A DNA stretch of 58,460 bases, taken from the sequence record PP627280.1; one strand, written 5' to 3'. The translations under genes and the position numbers were made by a program. The stretch comes from Escherichia phage SHIN8. Every line of letters starts with the position of its first letter. Within the stretch, counting starts at the first letter, position 1. Positions 24,999 through 52,025 of this stretch are shown here, piece by piece. A model generated the notes under the pieces. The model saw nothing but the letters and a program-made list of their open reading frames with translations. It ran no database searches and had not been told where the DNA came from.

Positions 24999-25952
24999 TT
25001 AGACACGTTCTCCAATTAACACACCGCGAAGATTTTCCCCAAAGAATGCGCAAGGTTGCGGATATAAACTAAAGTCCGCAGTCTTAACCACATTTTCGAG
25101 TAATAACAGGATGTCGATATTGTAAACTCCCGTTATTGATCTGTCCTGCAATACGAAGCTTGCACCTTCTGCATCATCGTAATGAGTACGCGCTAGACCG
25201 TTTTCAATATATACGCGAGGACGATCTTCCGCAAAAGGTTTAATTTTATGCAAGCCCTCAAAAAGACCTGGATCAACAGGATGTGCATTACATTGAACAT
25301 TTAAAATACGACGTATATCAGGCCACTCCGCATCAATAAGCTGTGTTCGCAACCAGCGACCTTCCGGATAATGAAACGTCACATTGTTCTTGCTAACCTG
25401 AATATGTGTCGGGTTAGCTTTAATGCGCAGTATTTCTTTAATAGCAACAGACGGTATTATGCAGTCAATAGGGAATTGATTACCAAACCAATATTCCGCA
25501 ATGGTGACGTTATTTGTAGCAAACAGGCTACCGTTATTAATCAGAATACCGCAAGCCCACGGGCGGGACGCATCCGAGCCTACAAACGGAGCAACAGACT
25601 TCACACCGTGTACGAAGCGAGCACCGTCTATTTCGTATAAATCGCCTTCAGGGAATACGTGAGGTGTTTCCTTGTCAATACAGCGTATAGCAACACGAAA
25701 CGGTCCGGACTTGATATTAAGTTTACCGTTAGCCATCATTGTTAACTGTACGGTTTCGTCACAGTTTGAAATAGCTTTAATCATAAGCCCAGCTTCGGGT
25801 TTGCAATCAATATCCAGCTCAATAGGGCTACCCAGTGCAATAACACCGTTAAAGCCCTGTACCTGTCCATCACGGATAAGAAAGCTGGTAAGCCCTTCTA
25901 CCAGTTCCTTTCGAGCGACGGAGCCTTGAACAAATTTAAGAGCGTCTAACAT
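24999..25952 (-). CDS. sliding clamp (DnaN/beta-clamp-like)
   Basis: 317 aa; DAEWPDIRRILN resembles the DnaN DGRFPDYRRVLP segment. Confidence 0.5.
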   Translation of the reverse strand: MLDALKFVQGSVARKELVEGLTSFLIRDGQVQGFNGVIALGSPIELDIDCKPEAGLMIKAISNCDETVQLTMMANGKLNIKSGPFRVAIRCIDKETPHVFPEGDLYEIDGARFVHGVKSVAPFVGSDASRPWACGILINNGSLFATNNVTIAEYWFGNQFPIDCIIPSVAIKEILRIKANPTHIQVSKNNVTFHYPEGRWLRTQLIDAEWPDIRRILNVQCNAHPVDPGLFEGLHKIKPFAEDRPRVYIENGLARTHYDDAEGASFVLQDRSITGVYNIDILLLLENVVKTADFSLYPQPCAFFGENLRGVLIGERV

Positions 25953-26179
25953 TAGCGATCCTCGATTGCTCTAATTGTGGTTAAATCTAATTCGCAGGTT
26001 GGAGGGTATCCATAAAGTCCCATTTGTTTTCCTTGTGCATTAAACCATGTACCTGACGGATCCTGCCATTGCTTAGGTGTCTTGTGGAGAAATACTACTC
26101 TGTTTTCACCGTAATAATTAATTCTTACGCCTGTGTGAGTATATTTACGTTTACCTTTTGGTCTTCTTAAGTTAGCCAT
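25952..26179 (-). CDS. hypothetical protein
   Basis: 75 aa, basic. Confidence 0.35.
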   Translation of the reverse strand: MANLRRPKGKRKYTHTGVRINYYGENRVVFLHKTPKQWQDPSGTWFNAQGKQMGLYGYPPTCELDLTTIRAIEDR

Positions 26180-27099
26180 CAGAACAACTCCATTACACGA
26201 TCACGGAATGTGCCGTCATGGGTGGCGTTAATGTTTGCAGCAATTACACCATACGCCCATAAGTTGAAGGCAGCACGTGATTCATAGATTGTTGATAAAC
26301 GTTCGTAAGTGAAACCGTTTTGCTCAAGGTATTTAAGGACAGCGTCTTGTTCAATTTCAGTTAATGTTGAAACATGCTTACCAAAATGATGACGGTCCGG
26401 TGACTTATCTGAAACGCGCATTAGTCCCCACGGAGGGGTAACCACACTTCCAAACGCTGCCGCTTGTATCCAGGAGGATGAGTCGCAGCTATACCACGGG
26501 TAACGTTCCATAATGGTTGTGGACGTAATACCAAACGCATGAAGTTTAATCTTAGCACGTCCGCTACCGTCGCAAATGTATTTGTCCCACATGCGGTCAA
26601 GCCAAGTCTTAAGCGTGTCCGTGGAACGCCCTACCATGCCACCGATAGTGATATATTCGTAGTTCTTCATGTAGTATTCAAGATAGCGGAAGTCCTCCCC
26701 AAAGTGAAAGCAAGGTAACGGTTTAGCACCGCGTGCTTCCATTTCAAGTTGGTTACGGTAGGTTTGCAACGGATCACCGATACCATCGAGCACCGACGCC
26801 ATTACTGCGCCATCTTCTACGCGAAGGATGTCTTTGTTGCGCTTGATGTATTCGCAGTATTCAACAATATCAATGTGAGCACCTAACGAGTGCGCGGAGA
26901 ATGCACCGGAGTCGAGAAACACTTTAGCCCCGTCCGCACGCATTTGATCAACATACTTCTGACGCCCAACGTAGTGGTAGGATTCCAAAATATTTGGAAG
27001 GCTATTAACAATGTCTTTTTCCCGATCGTTTAACTTTTCATATCGTTGTTGACCAGCTTTATAGCCGTTGGTATATACCGCAGCGACAAACAGATGCAT
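26179..27099 (-). CDS. dpdA: DNA-guanine transglycosylase (TGT-like, DpdA-type)
   Basis: 306 aa; VFLDSGAFSAH TGT-type motif; adjacent to preQ0 synthesis genes. Confidence 0.7.
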   Translation of the reverse strand: MHLFVAAVYTNGYKAGQQRYEKLNDREKDIVNSLPNILESYHYVGRQKYVDQMRADGAKVFLDSGAFSAHSLGAHIDIVEYCEYIKRNKDILRVEDGAVMASVLDGIGDPLQTYRNQLEMEARGAKPLPCFHFGEDFRYLEYYMKNYEYITIGGMVGRSTDTLKTWLDRMWDKYICDGSGRAKIKLHAFGITSTTIMERYPWYSCDSSSWIQAAAFGSVVTPPWGLMRVSDKSPDRHHFGKHVSTLTEIEQDAVLKYLEQNGFTYERLSTIYESRAAFNLWAYGVIAANINATHDGTFRDRVMELF

Positions 27100-27656
27100 T
27101 ATTCCACCTCAAATTTATTACGCTTAGATCTGTTTTCTTCAATAGATAAGTATTGTAGGTTACTAAGGACGTGAAGTCCACTGACTCTTTTACCGCAAAG
27201 AGGTATAATATGATCAACCTCCATCCCATCCGGGCAGTTAGCGTAGAACAATTCAATTTGTTCTTTTTCAGACCACGCAGGGATTCTTAAAGACCTTTTC
27301 TTATGCACTTCAAGGGAATGTAACCTTGATCTAGCTTTACCGTAATCTGTCTTAGCCCAGCGTTTCAGCCTTTCTTTATTTTGTTCTTTACCTTTCTCAG
27401 TAGAATTATAAGCAGCTTTTGAACGTTGAAGGGCTTCTTTTCCTTTCTGTGACTTATGGTATCTCTTAATAGCATTCCTTGCAGCTTCTGTTTTATTGTA
27501 AATACGCATTCTTTTCTTTCGTGCTTCTCTGTCACAAGTAATACAATAGCCATCTACAGTCTTTCTTTCAGAAACATGACCTTTCGCACAAGGCTTACCA
27601 GTAAAATAATATTTCAAACCTCTTTCTTTTGCTTCAGCTCTTGTGATAATTTCCAT
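27099..27656 (-). CDS. HNH homing endonuclease
   Basis: 185 aa; C-terminal DHIIPL...N...N HNH motif; Cys pairs; AT-rich codon usage. Confidence 0.65.
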   Translation of the reverse strand: MEIITRAEAKERGLKYYFTGKPCAKGHVSERKTVDGYCITCDREARKKRMRIYNKTEAARNAIKRYHKSQKGKEALQRSKAAYNSTEKGKEQNKERLKRWAKTDYGKARSRLHSLEVHKKRSLRIPAWSEKEQIELFYANCPDGMEVDHIIPLCGKRVSGLHVLSNLQYLSIEENRSKRNKFEVE

Positions 27657-27670
27657 TGTCTTATACCAAC

Positions 27671-27708
27671 TAAAAAGCCCATACCAGTATTATGACCGAT
27701 ATGGGCTT
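27671..27708 (-). terminator. putative intrinsic terminator between folE and HNH/dpdA
   Basis: AAGCCCATA/TATGGGCTT 9-bp stem followed by TTTTT on minus strand. Confidence 0.4.
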
Positions 27709-27726
27709 GATCTGTAAAGCTATCTA

Positions 27727-28368
27727 TTATTTACAAGCTTCAAGGAACTCCCGGCGCCATTCTTTACCAATATCGCTACCATGCTCCAGTTCTGTAGCGC
27801 CCCGGAATGCTTTAGTAATAGTAGAGCTGCCGCATACCTGCTTAACACCGCGTGACTCCATGCACATATGCTTGGCGTCAACATAAACACATACAGCTTT
27901 CGGGTTTAAATGCTCCTGAATAGCGTCTGCAATCTGGTTAGTAAGACGTTCCTGAACTTGCAGTCGACGACTAAAAGCATCCACAACGCGAGACAGCTTA
28001 CTAAGCCCAACAATCTTCCCATTGGGGACATAACCCACGACAGCATGACCGATGATAGGAGCCATGTGATGCTCACAATGACTATACACAGGGATATCAC
28101 GGACAATGACCATTTCATTGGTGTTTTCCGCCCCGTCTTCAAAGGTCTTAAATAACCCAGCAATATCTACATCGTAACCGCTAAACCACGTTGCATAAGC
28201 TTTCGCTACACGCTCCGGAGTTTCCTCCAGTCCTGGGCGCAGAACCGCGCTAACTTCAATTTGGGATAGTAAAGTACGCACAGCGTTAGCAATACGGAAT
28301 TGAACACCTTCACTATTAATACTATATTTAGACATGGTTTGCAGTTTCCTTGTTGTTAATGTGGTCAT
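27727..28368 (-). CDS. folE: GTP cyclohydrolase I
   Basis: 213 aa; SHCEHHMAPIIGHAVVGYVP active-site region. Confidence 0.85.
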   Translation of the reverse strand: MTTLTTRKLQTMSKYSINSEGVQFRIANAVRTLLSQIEVSAVLRPGLEETPERVAKAYATWFSGYDVDIAGLFKTFEDGAENTNEMVIVRDIPVYSHCEHHMAPIIGHAVVGYVPNGKIVGLSKLSRVVDAFSRRLQVQERLTNQIADAIQEHLNPKAVCVYVDAKHMCMESRGVKQVCGSSTITKAFRGATELEHGSDIGKEWRREFLEACK

Positions 28369-28369
28369 A

Positions 28370-28906
28370 TCACAGGCTATAGTTTACGTGGCATTTCGAA
28401 GTTTCTTCGATGGTGCATTCTACAAGTTGAACACCATGTTCGTCAAGCAGTAGCGGACCAATTACTTCAACCATATATGCAGCTAGATTTTCCGCAGTTG
28501 GGTTGAACGGCAAAGATACAAGTGAATCGTTAAAAGCTTTAAGATCTTCATCCCCTTCACCGAAAGTAGGCCAACCGCGTTCAGATTGAGTATCCGTTTC
28601 AATACAACATTGCAGTCCGTTGATCAACATATCCTTTTCCCAATGTAGAAACTTATGATCCCAGTTATCTTCTAGCCACTGGCAGAGCGTAGTTTTAACC
28701 ACACTAAAGTCGATCACGCGCCCAACGCTGTCCAGACCGTCCTCAATCAGCTTTCCTCGTGTCACTACTTTTCCGCATCCATGTTTCGGTGCAACTTTAA
28801 AATGAAACTTATAGTTGTGACCGTGGAGGTGGCGACATTTGCTTTCATGTCCTACAACACGGTGACCAGCGCAAATTTCATGTGAACGGATTACTGTATA
28901 GCTCAT
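28370..28906 (-). CDS. queD: 6-carboxy-5,6,7,8-tetrahydropterin synthase
   Basis: 178 aa; ICAGHRVVGHESKCRHLHGHNY Cys/His zinc motif. Confidence 0.75.
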   Translation of the reverse strand: MSYTVIRSHEICAGHRVVGHESKCRHLHGHNYKFHFKVAPKHGCGKVVTRGKLIEDGLDSVGRVIDFSVVKTTLCQWLEDNWDHKFLHWEKDMLINGLQCCIETDTQSERGWPTFGEGDEDLKAFNDSLVSLPFNPTAENLAAYMVEVIGPLLLDEHGVQLVECTIEETSKCHVNYSL

Positions 28907-29178
28907 TTTAATACCTCTTCTACTCTATTCATAAATTCCAAATGACGACGCATAGTTTCTTCTTTTGTGGAAGAATTACAATGCGACCAACCATTATCTA
29001 AGAAATATGCCCAATAATATTCACCATACTTCTTCCGCATAGCGGGAATGGGACATTTCCTTCTTTCAAGCTTAGGGTTCTGTGATCTTATATAAGCTTG
29101 TTTTTCTTTAAGACTTAATGCTTCAAACCAGTCAGCTTGCTCGTGGTACTTTAAATGTTTTGGAGGTACAGGGATCAT
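28903..29178 (-). CDS. hypothetical protein embedded in deazaguanine cluster
   Basis: 91-aa ORF. Confidence 0.4.
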   Translation of the reverse strand: MIPVPPKHLKYHEQADWFEALSLKEKQAYIRSQNPKLERRKCPIPAMRKKYGEYYWAYFLDNGWSHCNSSTKEETMRRHLEFMNRVEEVLK

Positions 29179-29753
29179 TTAATCACCTCTTTAGATTGTT
29201 CAATTTCTAACGCACGCTGTGCGGACGCAATAATGTCTTTCAAATCTTCTAACAGATTTTTATGACCGCGTTCGCCCGGCTGCAACGCTTTTTTGATTAA
29301 ATGCTGCAAAGCTGGGTTAGTTGTCTTCCAAGCTTCCAAGACATCATACACATCCACGATACACTTTACAACATTTCCGTTTTGATCTTTACCACGAATA
29401 ACTTTCTGATATTTATTCATGGGAATTTTAGATGGTTTGTATTTCGTAAAAACTGCACCATTAAATGTATTACTTATGCTTGTTTCAGAAGCTTGATGGT
29501 ACAATCCGGAGCGAGTGTTTTCGCTAGCTTGTTTGACGTAATCATCCGCAACAATATAACGCCAAGATATAACTGAATCCTTTTCTAACGGTATTACATT
29601 ATCGCAGGATTTTTTATACCAATCCCATCCTTGCTTATGGTTCTTCTTAATAGATCCATTAGCTAATTGAACTTCAAATTGCTCATTCTGAAGAAAAATA
29701 GGCATTCCTTTTCCATCATGTTTGTGCCAAATTTTATTCAAATTATCTTTCAT
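29175..29753 (-). CDS. hypothetical protein embedded in deazaguanine cluster
   Basis: track ORF trimmed to ATG 29753; Lys/Asn-rich, AT-rich. Confidence 0.4.
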   Translation of the reverse strand: MKDNLNKIWHKHDGKGMPIFLQNEQFEVQLANGSIKKNHKQGWDWYKKSCDNVIPLEKDSVISWRYIVADDYVKQASENTRSGLYHQASETSISNTFNGAVFTKYKPSKIPMNKYQKVIRGKDQNGNVVKCIVDVYDVLEAWKTTNPALQHLIKKALQPGERGHKNLLEDLKDIIASAQRALEIEQSKEVIK

Positions 29754-29755
29754 TT

Positions 29756-30235
29756 TTACGCTCTCGCTGTACGTGAATGAACTTCGTAAACAACCCAAAG
29801 AATAGCGGACGCTGTGAACTTACTTAAGCTCATTGCTACCATAGATCCCGGATTAACAATACCTATAATACTTAAGAACACAATGGAGTCAATCGGTACA
29901 GCTACCAAAGAGCTGATAAATACACGTTGATGAAAAGGCTTCTTGGTGACCGTGTATACCACATAATCAGCAAACTCACTAAGCGCAAAAGACGCAACGG
30001 ATGCAACTACAACCGCAGGATCTCCAAACACCCAGCTAAGGATGCAGCCAACGATCATTGCAGGGATAACACCTTTACCCGCGTTACGCTGTGCGTAATC
30101 ACGCAGGACAAAGATAATGCTTACAAAGAAAGCCATCATGGGGACTACGCCAAGTGGCGTATTAAGCATCGGAAGGTAGGAAAAGCCCAGGTTTACGAAT
30201 GTAATTGCAGCCAGATAAGCAACGATAAATTTCAT
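29756..30235 (-). CDS. polytopic membrane protein, possible 7-deazaguanine precursor transporter (YhhQ-like)
   Basis: 159 aa, 4-5 hydrophobic helices, located between queD and queC. Confidence 0.4.
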   Translation of the reverse strand: MKFIVAYLAAITFVNLGFSYLPMLNTPLGVVPMMAFFVSIIFVLRDYAQRNAGKGVIPAMIVGCILSWVFGDPAVVVASVASFALSEFADYVVYTVTKKPFHQRVFISSLVAVPIDSIVFLSIIGIVNPGSMVAMSLSKFTASAILWVVYEVHSRTARA

Positions 30236-30355
30236 ACTTTTGTTCTCCAGTTTTAACAGCGCTATTCGCTGGTTGTTGGGTTTAAAAGATTTAGTACTAT
30301 AGTTGGGTTACCGCACCCTAAACAATGCGCTAGCGGTGCGGTTTTCTCGGTAAGA

Positions 30356-31063
30356 TCAAGCTTTGCTAATAAATTCGCTGTACCCTTTAGCACGCAATTT
30401 GCACGCAGGGCATTCTCCGCAACCGTATCCCCAATCATGCAGAGTACGACGGACGCCGTTATAGCAAGTATGTGACCGCTCAATCACTGTGGTTAAGAAA
30501 CCAACCTTATCCGCCAGCTCAAACGTTTCTGCTTTATTTAAACGCATAAGCGGAGTAACAAAATGGATATCTGTTTCATATCCAACGTTTAACGTAGCTT
30601 CAAGCAGATCTACAAACTGCTGGCGGCAATCCGGATAACCGCTATAGTCCGTTTCACAAACGCCTGTAACCACATATCGAGCTCCAACCTTCTGCGCGTA
30701 GGCGTGCGCGGTAGTCAGGAAAAGAGCATTACGGTTTGGCACAAAGCTTGCCGGAAGGTTGTTGTGCTGTTCGTGATGTTCGTTAACATCACCTTCATTC
30801 CCGATTAAAGCACTATTGCCAATCTGTTTCAAAGCAGGTAATTCAAAGACAACAAACGGGACATTGTGCTCTTTACAAATTTGATTTGCACAAGCCAGCT
30901 CAATGTTATGACGTTGACCGTATGCAAAACCAATAGCATACACCTTATCATAGTTATTAAGGGCAAGACCCAAACAGGTGACGCTGTCCTGGCCGCCAGA
31001 CAGGACGACAACGGCGGAGTTATGATTTTTTACAGGGAATACCAGTTTATCTAATTTATTCAT
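30356..31063 (-). CDS. queC: 7-cyano-7-deazaguanine synthase
   Basis: 235 aa; PP-loop VVLSGGQDSVTC; C-terminal Cys cluster CYNG...CGECPAC. Confidence 0.85.
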   Translation of the reverse strand: MNKLDKLVFPVKNHNSAVVVLSGGQDSVTCLGLALNNYDKVYAIGFAYGQRHNIELACANQICKEHNVPFVVFELPALKQIGNSALIGNEGDVNEHHEQHNNLPASFVPNRNALFLTTAHAYAQKVGARYVVTGVCETDYSGYPDCRQQFVDLLEATLNVGYETDIHFVTPLMRLNKAETFELADKVGFLTTVIERSHTCYNGVRRTLHDWGYGCGECPACKLRAKGYSEFISKA

Positions 31064-31064
31064 T

Positions 31065-31253
31065 TTAGAAACCTTTAAGGTTAATATTAAGGTTAACGAC
31101 TACTTGTTCAACTACATCTTCAGAGGTTACCTGACGCTTGTGAATCTCAAGCTCCGAGTATATTTTCTTGGATGCAGCACGGCAAATAGCGTCATTTAAC
31201 TCGTCCTGTAAACGTTGAATCTTTTGCATAAGAATTACAGTCTCTTCATTCAT
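31065..31253 (-). CDS. hypothetical protein
   Basis: 62-aa ORF. Confidence 0.3.
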   Translation of the reverse strand: MNEETVILMQKIQRLQDELNDAICRAASKKIYSELEIHKRQVTSEDVVEQVVVNLNINLKGF

Positions 31254-31458
31254 CTACTTCACCTTTAATATCACAAGGGTTGATTGTTACGTTAGACATT
31301 ACAATTGGATGATTGCGCGCTCCAATTGTACTAACGTGATTAATATCTAATTCTACATGCACGCCCTGCATAGTAGCATGAGCAATTGAAGAATTAAGTT
31401 TTTCTACCAGCTCAGTGATCATTTCCTGATGCTGTTTCGCTTCTTCTAAAGTGATCAT
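31246..31458 (-). CDS. hypothetical protein
   Basis: 70-aa ORF. Confidence 0.3.
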   Translation of the reverse strand: MITLEEAKQHQEMITELVEKLNSSIAHATMQGVHVELDINHVSTIGARNHPIVMSNVTINPCDIKGEVDE

Positions 31459-32165
31459 TATTCCACCCCAATATATTTGTGAACCTGAAGCTGCAACGTG
31501 TAACCGTGTTTCATACAGCTTTGGACAACGGCTTGGATATTACTGTGGTTAAGGTCTTCATCCTGCTCGTCCATTGGCTGTAAATATATCTTACCCTTGA
31601 AACCCTTCGGAGGTCTAGCGATAAATGGCGTAGCTTGATGATCTAATGCCTGAAGCGGCAAACCATCTTCCACGTTTACACAGCACGCTTTAAGTACATA
31701 TTTAAATGCATTAGCGCGGCGCAGCACAGAAGGATGAATCTTTGAGGTCTTGGGACTACATACAATTACAGGTGACTGGGAAAAGTTCTTAGGTAAAGGC
31801 ATAGACCCATTAGTTTCAATTTGCACCAAATACCCGCGCGATAACAGTTGTTCAATAAACGGGTTAATTTGCTGACGGAACGGTTCACCCCCAGTGATAA
31901 CCACAAGTGAGGTGCTATTGCCGGATTCCAGCTTACGGCTTTCGATTAAACGCATAATATCGACAATGTGATAAAGACTACGACCAACAGTATAATCTGT
32001 ATCACAGCCAGGGCATTGCAGATTACACCCAGCAAGACGCACAAATACAGCAGGTTGGCCGCAGAATGGACCTTCACCCTGAATGGTAGAGAATACCGAA
32101 TGCACGTCTAAATACATATCGTTTTCTTTAGAACGGGACTCGGGAGCTTGTTGATTAATATTCAT
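31458..32165 (-). CDS. queE: 7-carboxy-7-deazaguanine synthase (radical SAM)
   Basis: 235 aa; CNLQCPGC (Cx3Cx2C) radical-SAM motif. Confidence 0.8.
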   Translation of the reverse strand: MNINQQAPESRSKENDMYLDVHSVFSTIQGEGPFCGQPAVFVRLAGCNLQCPGCDTDYTVGRSLYHIVDIMRLIESRKLESGNSTSLVVITGGEPFRQQINPFIEQLLSRGYLVQIETNGSMPLPKNFSQSPVIVCSPKTSKIHPSVLRRANAFKYVLKACCVNVEDGLPLQALDHQATPFIARPPKGFKGKIYLQPMDEQDEDLNHSNIQAVVQSCMKHGYTLQLQVHKYIGVE

Positions 32166-38353: not shown

Positions 38354-39280
38354 TTAATCTAAAGCCTGATCACTTTCATCGCGGAAATGCATAAAGTTTG
38401 CAAAACGCGGTTTATCTTTCACGCCATGAGGGAAGTGTTTATATGAAATAGTCCGACCTTTAATTTTGTCAGGGTTATTCCAATAATAAATCTTATCCTC
38501 TTGCGTTAGTTTACCAGGACTAACGTTGATTGTATTGCCCGTCTTAACGTCTTTACAAACCAACGTCCCGATCATACCGTTAGGAACTTTATTTTCCTGA
38601 TGCGAAGATCGTGTAGTCCTGCCCAGCTCGTTAACAGTAGCTTCATTAAGGTTAGTTTCACCCTCAATAATATCAAGGACAATAGCATCTTCCTGAATAA
38701 AGCGTTTAATACGAAGATATCCACCTTCACGAACTGTGCCGCGCCCATGTTTATAAGGCTTGTCAGGATCACGGATAATAATACCTTCATAACCCATATC
38801 AAGCCAGATGTTTTCCCAGTAGAGCAGCTCTTGTAAAGACTTAACCACACGCATCTCTACCACTTTCAGGTCGAACAATTCACCCTTCGCGTGCTGTGTG
38901 GTTATAAAGTCTTTCATCATGTTGTAGCGAGCTTCATACCCAAGCTCTGCTACACTTTCCGCGCACAGATCAAAGATGTGCCATATTAGCAACGGTTCAC
39001 CTTCAATTGTATTTACCGCACTGGTTGTTTTACGACACAGGTCAGGATCTGTTTCCAACCCTGCTGCAAGTTCACCGTCATAGCCCATGTACTGGGGACC
39101 GCTGAAAATTGCGCTTGTATGGCGGTTTTTAAACAGCTTTAAGCTTCGCCCTACTATCTGCCCGTCCGGATTTAAACCGCGTACACCGTCGATTTTAGGC
39201 AGTATACAGCACGGAAACTTAATCTTTTCTTCAACCGCGTCAGTCGCTAAATGTGGTTTAAATGCCATTGTTAACCTCAT
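38354..39280 (-). CDS. ATP-dependent DNA ligase
   Basis: 308 aa; motif I LPKIDGVRG. Confidence 0.7.
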   Translation of the reverse strand: MRLTMAFKPHLATDAVEEKIKFPCCILPKIDGVRGLNPDGQIVGRSLKLFKNRHTSAIFSGPQYMGYDGELAAGLETDPDLCRKTTSAVNTIEGEPLLIWHIFDLCAESVAELGYEARYNMMKDFITTQHAKGELFDLKVVEMRVVKSLQELLYWENIWLDMGYEGIIIRDPDKPYKHGRGTVREGGYLRIKRFIQEDAIVLDIIEGETNLNEATVNELGRTTRSSHQENKVPNGMIGTLVCKDVKTGNTINVSPGKLTQEDKIYYWNNPDKIKGRTISYKHFPHGVKDKPRFANFMHFRDESDQALD

Positions 39281-39899
39281 TCATAATAATCATGTTGATG
39301 AGAACTGCCACGTATACCGCAACGTTCTAAAAGTATTGCAGCTTTTTGAGCTTTCTCTTTCATACGGGTATTACGGCGTAAATGTCCGCTACCCTTTTTA
39401 GGTCTATTTTCCTTTTTCTTTGCTTCGGAAATAAGCTCTTTGCATTCCTGCAAACGGATCTTGCTTCTTTCCAATCGCATAGCAGAACGCGCACGTTCAT
39501 CGCAAAATCTTTGGGCTTTACTACGTTGGTCTTGCGTACTTGTATGACCTTTAACGTGGCGGAACTCAATAGTTAGATTATATTTACGCAATTGATCGTT
39601 CAACCATTTGAAAGCTACACCTTCCTGTTCACTTTTCCAGCTTGCTTCTTTATACACTTTAATAGCTGTTGAACAATCTGTTTGCACAATTAAATGATCG
39701 CCTGGATGGATTAATTTAGCCTTCAATCCCTCCCAAATAACATTACAGATTGCCATTGTTTCAGCTGCATTATTATCAGGAGCTCCACGTAACGGCCCAC
39801 CGTTAGCGTTATTTCCACGGTTGCACACTACCCAGCCACCGTATCCCGCGGCTTTGTATTTGGACAAAAACTTGCATCAGATATAATTGTTACTCTCAT
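39277..39899 (-). pseudogene. ribonuclease H, interrupted by frameshift at an A5/T5 run
   Basis: N-terminal MRVTIISDASF is in another frame from the track ORF (TTG start at 39867); one extra T at 39866-39870 gives continuous ..SDASFLSKYKAAGYGGW..TDC.. Confidence 0.5.
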
Positions 39900-39911
39900 T
39901 ATTTATCCTTA

Positions 39912-39935
39912 ATAAAAAGGGGTCTGTTGACCCCC
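39912..39935 (-). terminator. intrinsic terminator upstream of RNase H
   Basis: GGGGTC-aaca-GACCCC followed by TTTTT on minus strand. Confidence 0.5.
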
Positions 39936-39940
39936 TATAG

Positions 39941-40171
39941 TTATGCAGGAATGGATTCTTCCGGTACTTCCGGAATAACAATCTCAATTTCTTCCTCATT
40001 CTGGAAGGTTAGTCGAAACCCGTCTCCTGGACGCCCGAAAGCAAAGGTAAGGGCTATCGTATTATCCTGCTCGTAATGACAGATGCTTTCTACTTTCATT
40101 TCGTTACCGTAAAAGTCACGGTAAATCATTCCAGGTAGCGCATCGGTCGCTTTGATCTTTCTTACAGCCAT
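39941..40171 (-). CDS. hypothetical protein
   Basis: track ORF trimmed to internal ATG (MAVRKIKATD..). Confidence 0.35.
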   Translation of the reverse strand: MAVRKIKATDALPGMIYRDFYGNEMKVESICHYEQDNTIALTFAFGRPGDGFRLTFQNEEEIEIVIPEVPEESIPA

Positions 40172-40181
40172 TATTCCCCGT

Positions 40182-40973
40182 TTACAGTTTGTCTTTGAAC
40201 TCTTCGATATATTGCTCGATCGGATACTGCTTACGCTTGAAACGATCAAACAAGATTTTAGCAGATTCTACGTCTTCGTCGCTCTCTTTACTTGCGCCCG
40301 GTGCCATAAAATCACGCCATGTAAAACCGTTCAGATTATGCATCTTAGCGATGTGCTTGTTGTAACGGCTTTCCCAGTCCACACGCGGACCTTCCATCGT
40401 GCGTAAACCGCGCCCAAGCACCTGTACATATAGATCTTTCTGACGTTGTACAGCTTCGCCATTATAAGGTCCGGTTTTAAACTCAACAATACTACCGTTA
40501 AGATCTACACCATCTGCAAAGTTGTGTAGCATAGTTTCAATGACGTCATTCAATGTTGGAACCGCCACTTTACCCTGAGCAATACCTGCTAAATAACCGA
40601 CGTTTTCTTCACCGTACAACTCGATCAGTTCTTTCTTGGTTGCTTCTGCTTCTTTGTTTGCGGACAAAGCCAACATCTGTTGTTCGAACATGTGCTCCTG
40701 TTCCAGGAAGTGAGCATAGCGCTCTTCGTCTACTTTGCACACAATCCATTTATATTCAACATCCTTGCTGAAGTCCGGATACTGATCTACTTCTACTACT
40801 TCCGTAGCAAAGAACTTGCCGTTATGTTGAATAACAACTGTATCGCCCGGCTGCAATTCGTCACTTTCCAGAGCACGGTAGGTATAAAGACGCCCACTCG
40901 CTTCAAACTTAACTTTGACAGTTACAACGCCTTTTAACAGAGCATGATAAGCTTTCTGAAATTCTTTACGCAT
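40182..40973 (-). CDS. hypothetical protein
   Basis: 263-aa ORF. Confidence 0.4.
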   Translation of the reverse strand: MRKEFQKAYHALLKGVVTVKVKFEASGRLYTYRALESDELQPGDTVVIQHNGKFFATEVVEVDQYPDFSKDVEYKWIVCKVDEERYAHFLEQEHMFEQQMLALSANKEAEATKKELIELYGEENVGYLAGIAQGKVAVPTLNDVIETMLHNFADGVDLNGSIVEFKTGPYNGEAVQRQKDLYVQVLGRGLRTMEGPRVDWESRYNKHIAKMHNLNGFTWRDFMAPGASKESDEDVESAKILFDRFKRKQYPIEQYIEEFKDKL

Positions 40974-44482: not shown

Positions 44483-44689
44483 TTACCCCCTTAAGTTTTG
44501 AATCATTCTATCACAGGCAGCTTTTACAGAAGAGTTCTGCCAGTCTTCTTCAATTTGTGAAGGTTCTTCAGGCGAATAAGCAGCACTAATCAAGCACTGA
44601 TTATAACCTTCAATATAAGCTTGCTTTGCGGTATCGACTATTGCTCGTAAAGCGATATTGAATAATTGTTGATCCATTTTACACCTCAC
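44483..44689 (-). CDS. hypothetical protein
   Basis: 68 aa; GTG start overlapping stop of upstream micro-ORF. Confidence 0.4.
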   Translation of the reverse strand: MRCKMDQQLFNIALRAIVDTAKQAYIEGYNQCLISAAYSPEEPSQIEEDWQNSSVKAACDRMIQNLRG

Positions 44690-50708: not shown

Positions 50709-51046
50709 GATGCAACCCTTTTTATGTGGTTAAGCAGTATTTCTTTGTTGAAGTAATAATAGCCTTGCATCGTGATATTGAATAGGCCAAAAGTGCTATT
50801 TTAGATCACTATTACATCTACAGCTTTGCAGTAACGCTACGCTAAAAATGCAAAGTCTTACGTTTGCAAAGAAAGTGGATTTTATGTACATCACTCTTAG
50901 TACGTATAACGTCTATTATGTTAAATAGCTAAGTTATTGATTTATGGTAAATCTTGTATCAATTCGGACGTTATAGGAGTCTAACGTATTGATTTATAAG
51001 GGTGTAAAATTTTGCTGTTTGTAGCGCATAAAAAGGAACAAACCGG

Positions 51047-51460: not shown

Positions 51461-52025
51461 CGCACACAGCAGCACCACAGCGAGCTAATGTACATAGGTA
51501 ATGGTAATGCATTACCAACACACAACGAGCACGCTGTACCCCACAAAGCGGCGCTAATTTCAACACTCACAGGCTGTACGTTAACTCGTACGGCCTGCTC
51601 TGCTATATGCACGCCACATACGCAGCCAGCTCACAGTGAACATTAATATAATCACGAATGAAATGGATTCGTTTGGAAGAATAACAATTCTTGCAGTCAC
51701 AGACCGGTCCAATGAGCCGGCTCATAGACCCCACCTAGGATCATCAGGGTACTAATAATCACCCGAGGGCGCCTTATCCATCCTGATAGTAAGTCCACGC
51801 CTAAATCTCACCTGTCACATCCCTGTCCACCTACATCCATGACCCCACCTACCTTCTTTTTGAATATATTGCGCTCATCCTTTCTAAATATATGGATTTT
51901 GGTAGTAAATTCTGAGTCGTCAACGTATAATTCGTCTTGTAGCTGCTCCATAGCTATCATCTTTAAGCGGATGCAACCAATTTCTATCAGTTCACACCTG
52001 TTTTTAGAGCATCGAGGAGGTATTT

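Follow-up and report, generated by a model that had tools for sequence, protein, structure and literature searches.

The DNA analysed here (the window) comprises the whole 58,460-bp genome of Escherichia phage SHIN8, a member of Seuratvirus (Queuovirinae), and it is collinear from the first base to the last with the genome of Escherichia phage CAjan (also Seuratvirus, Queuovirinae). The replication module of SHIN8 holds a type 1 RNase H gene that adjoins a DNA ligase gene, both on the minus strand. The ligase gene (38354-39268) encodes an ATP-dependent enzyme of 304 amino acids. It is located directly downstream of the RNase H gene, and its Shine-Dalgarno sequence overlaps the RNase H stop codon. 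The position of the RNase H gene directly upstream of the ligase gene in the replication module would fit a role in primer removal. The region directly upstream of the RNase H gene contains a hairpin resembling an intrinsic terminator (39917-39936, minus strand), which reads AGGGGGTC-AACA-GACCCCTT and is followed by a run of T. The equivalent hairpin carries a terminator annotation in the phages Seurat and SA80RD. The native ATG is preceded at a distance of 6 nt by the Shine-Dalgarno-like sequence AAGGA (39906-39910, minus strand). SHIN8 has kept the start signals of the gene intact, and the Seurat record annotates a ribosome-binding site at the corresponding position. The RNase H genes of the other Seuratvirus phages occupy the same place, between an ORF of 76 amino acids and the DNA ligase gene, and have the same upstream terminator, Shine-Dalgarno sequence and start codon. 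A look-up in GenBank for 38354-39268, 39277-39756 and 40182-40973 returned the SHIN8 proteins WZL04299, WZL04300 and WZL04303, respectively. At about 25000-32000, also on the minus strand and collinear with CAjan, the genome carries a gene set for 7-deazaguanine (preQ0/queuosine) DNA modification, whose members are FolE, QueD, QueE, QueC, a DpdA-type transglycosylase and a preQ0 transporter.

An uninterrupted ORF for the whole RNase H domain is absent in SHIN8. A 1-bp deletion parts codons 1-16, which include the codon for the catalytic residue D8, from codons 17-207. The 5′ fragment (39828-39899, minus strand) consists of 23 codons and a TAG stop codon. It begins with the native ATG at 39899-39897, ends with the stop at 39830-39828 and translates as MRVTIISDASFCPNTKPRDTVAG. 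The first 16 codons of this fragment (MRVTIISDASFCPNTK) are the native N-terminus of RNase H including Asp8, and the last seven are out of frame. The 3′ portion (39277-39852, minus strand) comprises the native codons 17-207 and a TGA stop codon, and, counted from the ATG, is in the -1 frame. Encoded in it are Glu47, Asp68 and Asp75, His119, Asp134 and the Lys/Arg-rich C-terminal tail. The -1 frame is open on the minus strand from 39877 to the TGA at 39279-39277 and reads …KYKAAGYGGWVVCNRGN…QTDCST…VKGH…CDERA…, also quoted as …AAGYGGWVVCNRGN…TDC…. When the intact proteins of six relatives were used as tblastn queries, the match to the SHIN8 gene broke in two: frame -1 covered residues 1-16, and frame -3 covered residues 11-207. 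An RNase HI-like gene split over two frames of the minus strand, as the first-pass annotation had described from the letters of the sequence, is therefore borne out by both the ORFs and the two-piece matches. The -1 frame holds two ORFs. One of them, drawn mechanically, starts at a TTG, has 196 amino acids and does not include D8. The other starts at the internal Met49 (39277-39756, minus strand), has 159 amino acids and is devoid of both Asp8 and Glu47. This remnant is the protein WZL04300.1, which an exact-sequence look-up, with coordinates computed, found in GenBank as 'Rnase H' and not flagged as a pseudogene product.

The family to which the interrupted gene belongs was assessed with the repaired protein of 207 amino acids. 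The repaired protein matches the Pfam profile RNase_H (PF00075) with 37.4 bits at a gathering score of 25.8, and the match spans residues 3-141 and profile positions 4-140 of 141. It also matches PHROG 531, 'Rnase H', with an E-value of 1.5e-38. The residues D8, E47, H119 and D134 align with D10, E48, H124 and D134 of E. coli RNase HI and are invariant in five phage homologues and the E. coli enzyme. The third carboxylate is ambiguous. It is either D68, as aligned by MAFFT and BLASTP, or D75, which lies in a QTD motif after a predicted strand, and both are kept among the phage proteins. On the minus strand, the codon for the aspartate of PGD68 lies at about 39698-39696 and that of QTD75 at about 39677-39675; the strand followed by TD at D75 resembles …LSTD70 of E. 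coli. The phage protein is only 27% identical to E. coli RNase HI (PF00075) and, unlike it, has a Lys/Arg-rich C-terminal tail of roughly 65 residues that varies between Seuratvirus lineages. A sequence search with the phage RNase H for a relative of solved structure returned no significant match. The single-sequence AlphaFold2 model of the 196-aa ORF was poor (mean pLDDT 53.9), and the top PDB matches of this low-confidence model in Foldseek were human, archaeal and E. coli RNase H, at E-values of 0.024 or higher and a TM-score of about 0.3, which is not significant. Judged by its profile matches and conserved residues, the SHIN8 gene, once repaired, encodes a predicted type 1 RNase H.

The relatives of SHIN8 carry this gene in one piece. 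In CAjan, ECP2304, SLUR25 and SA80RD an uninterrupted CDS of 624 nt is annotated as RNase H, and the repaired SHIN8 protein is 98.6% identical to that of CAjan (AJT60538.1, 207 aa). In Seurat, SLUR75 and KS_A3 the gene is also uninterrupted and is longer (654-663 nt), because its C-terminal tail differs. The product of ORF56 of the phage DruSM1 (WZK98959.1, 217 aa) is a Seuratvirus RNase H like that of CAjan. A tblastn search matched 113 records; all 60 matches listed run in one piece and a single frame from residue 1 (in one case from residue 3), and all 33 close records from Seuratvirus are among them, together with Nonagvirus and others. Compared with the Seuratvirus genes, the SHIN8 gene has one A fewer in an A4 run at codons 16/17, which splits the ORF, and in GenBank it is represented only by the 159-aa remnant. 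The tail itself is mosaic among the Seuratvirus phages (39277-39340 in the window and the equivalent segments elsewhere). At least three unrelated endings are found, namely …AAILLERCGIRGSSHQHDYYE in CAjan and SHIN8, …SITTRSDWSDFDYEM in SLUR75 and DruSM1, and …KLKFVHSFMNRGANGI in Seurat and KS_A3, the last of which overlaps the ligase start. Shorter forms of the protein, with 167 and 196 amino acids, also occur. The mosaic tails suggest that recombination has had a breakpoint within the 3′-terminal part of the RNase H gene. In SA126VB an HNH endonuclease gene is located nearby.

The missing base was placed by alignment. The run A3 (TTT on the plus strand) at 39853-39855, minus strand, is A4 (ACAAAAGCC) in every relative aligned there, so that AATACAAAAGCC in the relatives corresponds to AATACAAAGCC in the window. 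The A4 form is found in CAjan, ECP2304, SLUR25, Seurat, SA80RD, SLUR75, KS_A3 and slur01 and in five metagenomic or IMG/VR contigs. In an exact-pattern search the A3 allele was absent from IMG/VR, the JGI metagenome contigs and the GTDB genome contigs; the A4 allele was present in six further public contigs. The deletion falls between codons 16 and 17, and the zero frame now reads AC[A_AAG].

The first-pass annotation had located the lesion elsewhere, in the A5/T5 run at 39866-39870 (minus strand). According to that version, the base is missing from the T5 run and the native protein is MRVTIISDASF-LSKYKAAGYGGW. The insertion of a T at this run does reopen the frame, as had been predicted, but the continuous protein obtained contains four wrong residues and one extra residue (FLSKYKAAG versus FCPNTKAAG). 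Both the window and all four relatives of the first alignment have five T here, the further alignments show no gap in the run either, and the lesion lies 13 nt downstream of it. The proteins of the relatives read FCPNTKAAGYGGW across this point, and comparison with them gives the native N-terminus as MRVTIISDASFCPNTKAAGYGGW and not as ...FLSKYKAAGYGGW. The residues KYK, which had been taken for native RNase H sequence, are out of frame, and LSKYK would stand in place of CPNTK. A lesion in the T5 run is hardly credible in view of these data and was rejected, since the run has the same length in all relatives and a difference in length is seen only at 39853-39855. The base worth checking is accordingly in the A run at 39853-39855; a search for six T/A at 39866-39870 would address the wrong run.

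Transcriptional slippage needs A/T runs much longer than three. It was considered for the SHIN8 gene, in which the A run has only three bases. The deletion brings a slippery motif into register: the zero frame reads ACA AAG, which contains the tetramer A_AA.G, on which tRNA-Lys can shift to the -1 frame and pair anew with AAA. A -1 slip at A_AAG (ACA AAG to AAA GCC) gives the exact wild-type protein. Such a site could serve a functional recoding, in which -1 frameshifting at A_AAG yields the wild-type protein in a smaller and possibly adaptive amount. In E. coli no tetramer shifts as readily as A_AA.G when a stimulator is present; tetramers that have no stimulator shift at about 0.15% compared with a background of 0.11%, and values of up to 5.6% require a strong pseudoknot (PMC4066793). 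With the tetranucleotide Z_ZZ.N sites, among them the A_AA.G sites of IS elements (Sharma et al. 2014, PMC4066793), SHIN8 shares the tetramer in register. Unlike them, the SHIN8 site has no pseudoknot or hairpin, is not conserved and was made by a private deletion, and its expected efficiency is near background. The 77 nt that begin at the motif fold with -24.6 kcal/mol, compared with -23.5 +/- 2.7 for shuffled sequences (z = -0.39), and inspection by eye of the sequence upstream of A_AAG revealed no Shine-Dalgarno-like stimulator. The two-frame arrangement was seen in none of the 60 tblastn matches listed (113 matched). Since a stimulatory RNA structure is missing and the shift is not conserved, the site is not one of programmed recoding. 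Programmed or stimulated frameshifting was rejected on these two grounds, and we regard a functional recoding as highly unlikely, the register of the tetramer and the restored native sequence notwithstanding. The low-level slippage that the first-pass annotation had offered as one of its explanations can be retained as a background leak only, given the lack of a stimulatory structure and of the frameshift in any relative. At most, a background -1 slip of tRNA-Lys on A_AAG could regenerate the exact wild-type protein; judging by published reporter data, such a slip would occur at a rate of about 0.1%. There is also a slim chance that the A3 run is real and that SHIN8 is a natural RNase H down-mutant and not a null, with a few ribosomes slipping at codons 15-16 to make the exact wild-type enzyme, and that the reduced dose or the complete loss of RNase H is selectively favoured, for example by removing a trigger or target of host defence.

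The first-pass annotation had explained the split by a single-base frameshift within a homopolymer, which would reflect either an error of sequencing or a mutation that truly inactivates the gene, and this general reading holds. The sequence alone gives nothing to tell a real deletion from a consensus error. Apart from the RNase H gene, no genuine conserved CDS of the 58-kb genome is frameshifted. A tblastn scan with the ORFs of six relatives revealed no other broken real gene, and the remaining signatures belong to antisense or unannotated ORFs. In the equivalent 27-44 kb of six sibling genomes no frameshift was backed by more than one ORF. The SHIN8 genome contains 563 homopolymers of four bases, 121 of five and 28 of six, and all 121 five-base runs and all 28 six-base runs lie in unbroken genes. 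The isolated 1-bp indels relative to CAjan are common to other relatives, except those at 39853, 40176 and 44486; apart from the one at 39853, all are confined to gene junctions or to the final codons of a gene. Because they are common to other relatives and lie at gene junctions, most of the other 1-bp indels are natural polymorphisms. The assembly cannot be regarded as riddled with indels, as the other indels are mostly shared or located at junctions and no other real gene is broken.

Several of the differences from CAjan can be described individually. The difference at 44486, in a C5 run, affects a small ORF in its last codon only (…RGK becomes …RG before the stop), and an allele of the same length is found in a metagenomic contig. 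At 50719 there is a 2-bp insertion, and the homopolymer-length differences at 51897 and 52005 are common to KS_A3 and SLUR25. These four differences all lie near gene ends or between genes.

An alternative origin of the lesion is an artefact of the consensus. In this case the phage DNA has A4 and an intact gene for 207 amino acids, and one base was dropped from a short homopolymer, possibly through an under-call in long reads that was aggravated by 7-deazaguanine (preQ0) in the adjacent GGC motif. CAjan-type phages modify G at GA and GGC (preQ0), which disturbs the nanopore signal of neighbouring bases (PMC7544227). The lesion abuts a GGC motif, and SHIN8 carries the queuosine/preQ0 gene block collinear with that of CAjan. 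The lesion lies in a homopolymer, its A3 allele was found nowhere else, and the RNase H gene shows no secondary decay, all of which speaks for an artefact. So does a second 1-bp homopolymer deletion that is seen only in the window. It is located at 40176-40179 on the plus strand, 323 bp from the RNase H lesion, where the window has CCCC (GGGG on the minus strand). All nine relatives aligning there have C5, and the deletion is present in no sampled relative. The site is a Shine-Dalgarno-like G run 4 nt upstream of the ATG at 40171 with which the 76-aa ORF starts; on its other side is the stop (40182) of a 263-aa ORF. That two window-only deletions lie so near to each other may be a coincidence or may point to a local weakness of the assembly. 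The second deletion, however, lies between genes where it is harmless, the pattern that selection on variants would produce. A consensus prone to indels should strike the longer runs first, but no other conserved gene is frameshifted in the 58 kb, and short reads would be very unlikely to give a wrong consensus at an A4 run. Taken with this evidence, an artefact is quite conceivable, at somewhat below even odds.

The alternative to it, a genuine deletion in the phage DNA, draws support from the clean state of the rest of the assembly despite its many runs of four, five and six bases. Within 2.8 kb around the RNase H gene 12 substitutions are present that occur in no sampled relative. These lineage-private substitutions imply that there has been time enough for a mutation to arise. 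On the other side, the 623-nt RNase H gene itself contains no window-unique substitutions, compared with about 2.7 expected at the local rate, and every amino-acid difference of the SHIN8 RNase H is common to some relative. An old pseudogene was rejected, given the absence of window-unique substitutions and the occurrence of L59, S121 and T122 in relatives.

We propose that the frameshift is a genuine, recent, lineage-private and tolerated loss-of-function mutation. This is the most likely account of the locus, with a probability of roughly 0.55. Translation would start normally at the ATG at 39899, the Shine-Dalgarno sequence being intact. Past Lys16 the ribosome would no longer be in the native frame and would terminate at the TAG at 39830-39828, releasing a peptide of 23 residues, and the downstream part, which holds most of the active site, would stay untranslated. 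Since the frameshift lies between codons 16 and 17, the catalytic Asp8 is parted from the rest of the active site. A product of internal reinitiation, either from the 196-aa TTG ORF or from the 159-aa Met49 ORF, would not contain this residue and should be inactive. The loss would be tolerated by the phage, the gene being dispensable, and the removal of primers could be taken over by the host, whose RNase HI and Pol I can remove them. The dispensability of the gene is known from the sibling Seuratvirus DruSM1, for which a phage with a clean deletion of ORF56 ('Rnase H') was obtained, as was a ligase deletion (bioRxiv 10.1101/2024.04.14.589459, Table S1). DruSM1 comes from the same laboratory collection that lists SHIN8 (bioRxiv 10.1101/2024.04.14.589459). 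The identity of the deleted gene was checked, and the primers used for the deletion match the gene for RNase H in DruSM1. As DruSM1 is viable without its RNase H, a genuine loss of function in SHIN8 would be tolerable.

The lesion is an ordinary private single-base frameshift or a sequencing error in a known gene that is dispensable in a sister phage, and the public annotation already contains it in uncorrected form. Beyond record-keeping it has little significance. Should it prove an artefact, both the 159-aa 'Rnase H' and the GenBank record that holds it would have to be corrected. A real deletion would make SHIN8 a naturally RNase H-deficient Seuratvirus and a potential ready-made comparison strain, and it would agree with the engineered deletion in DruSM1 that these phages manage without an RNase H of their own.
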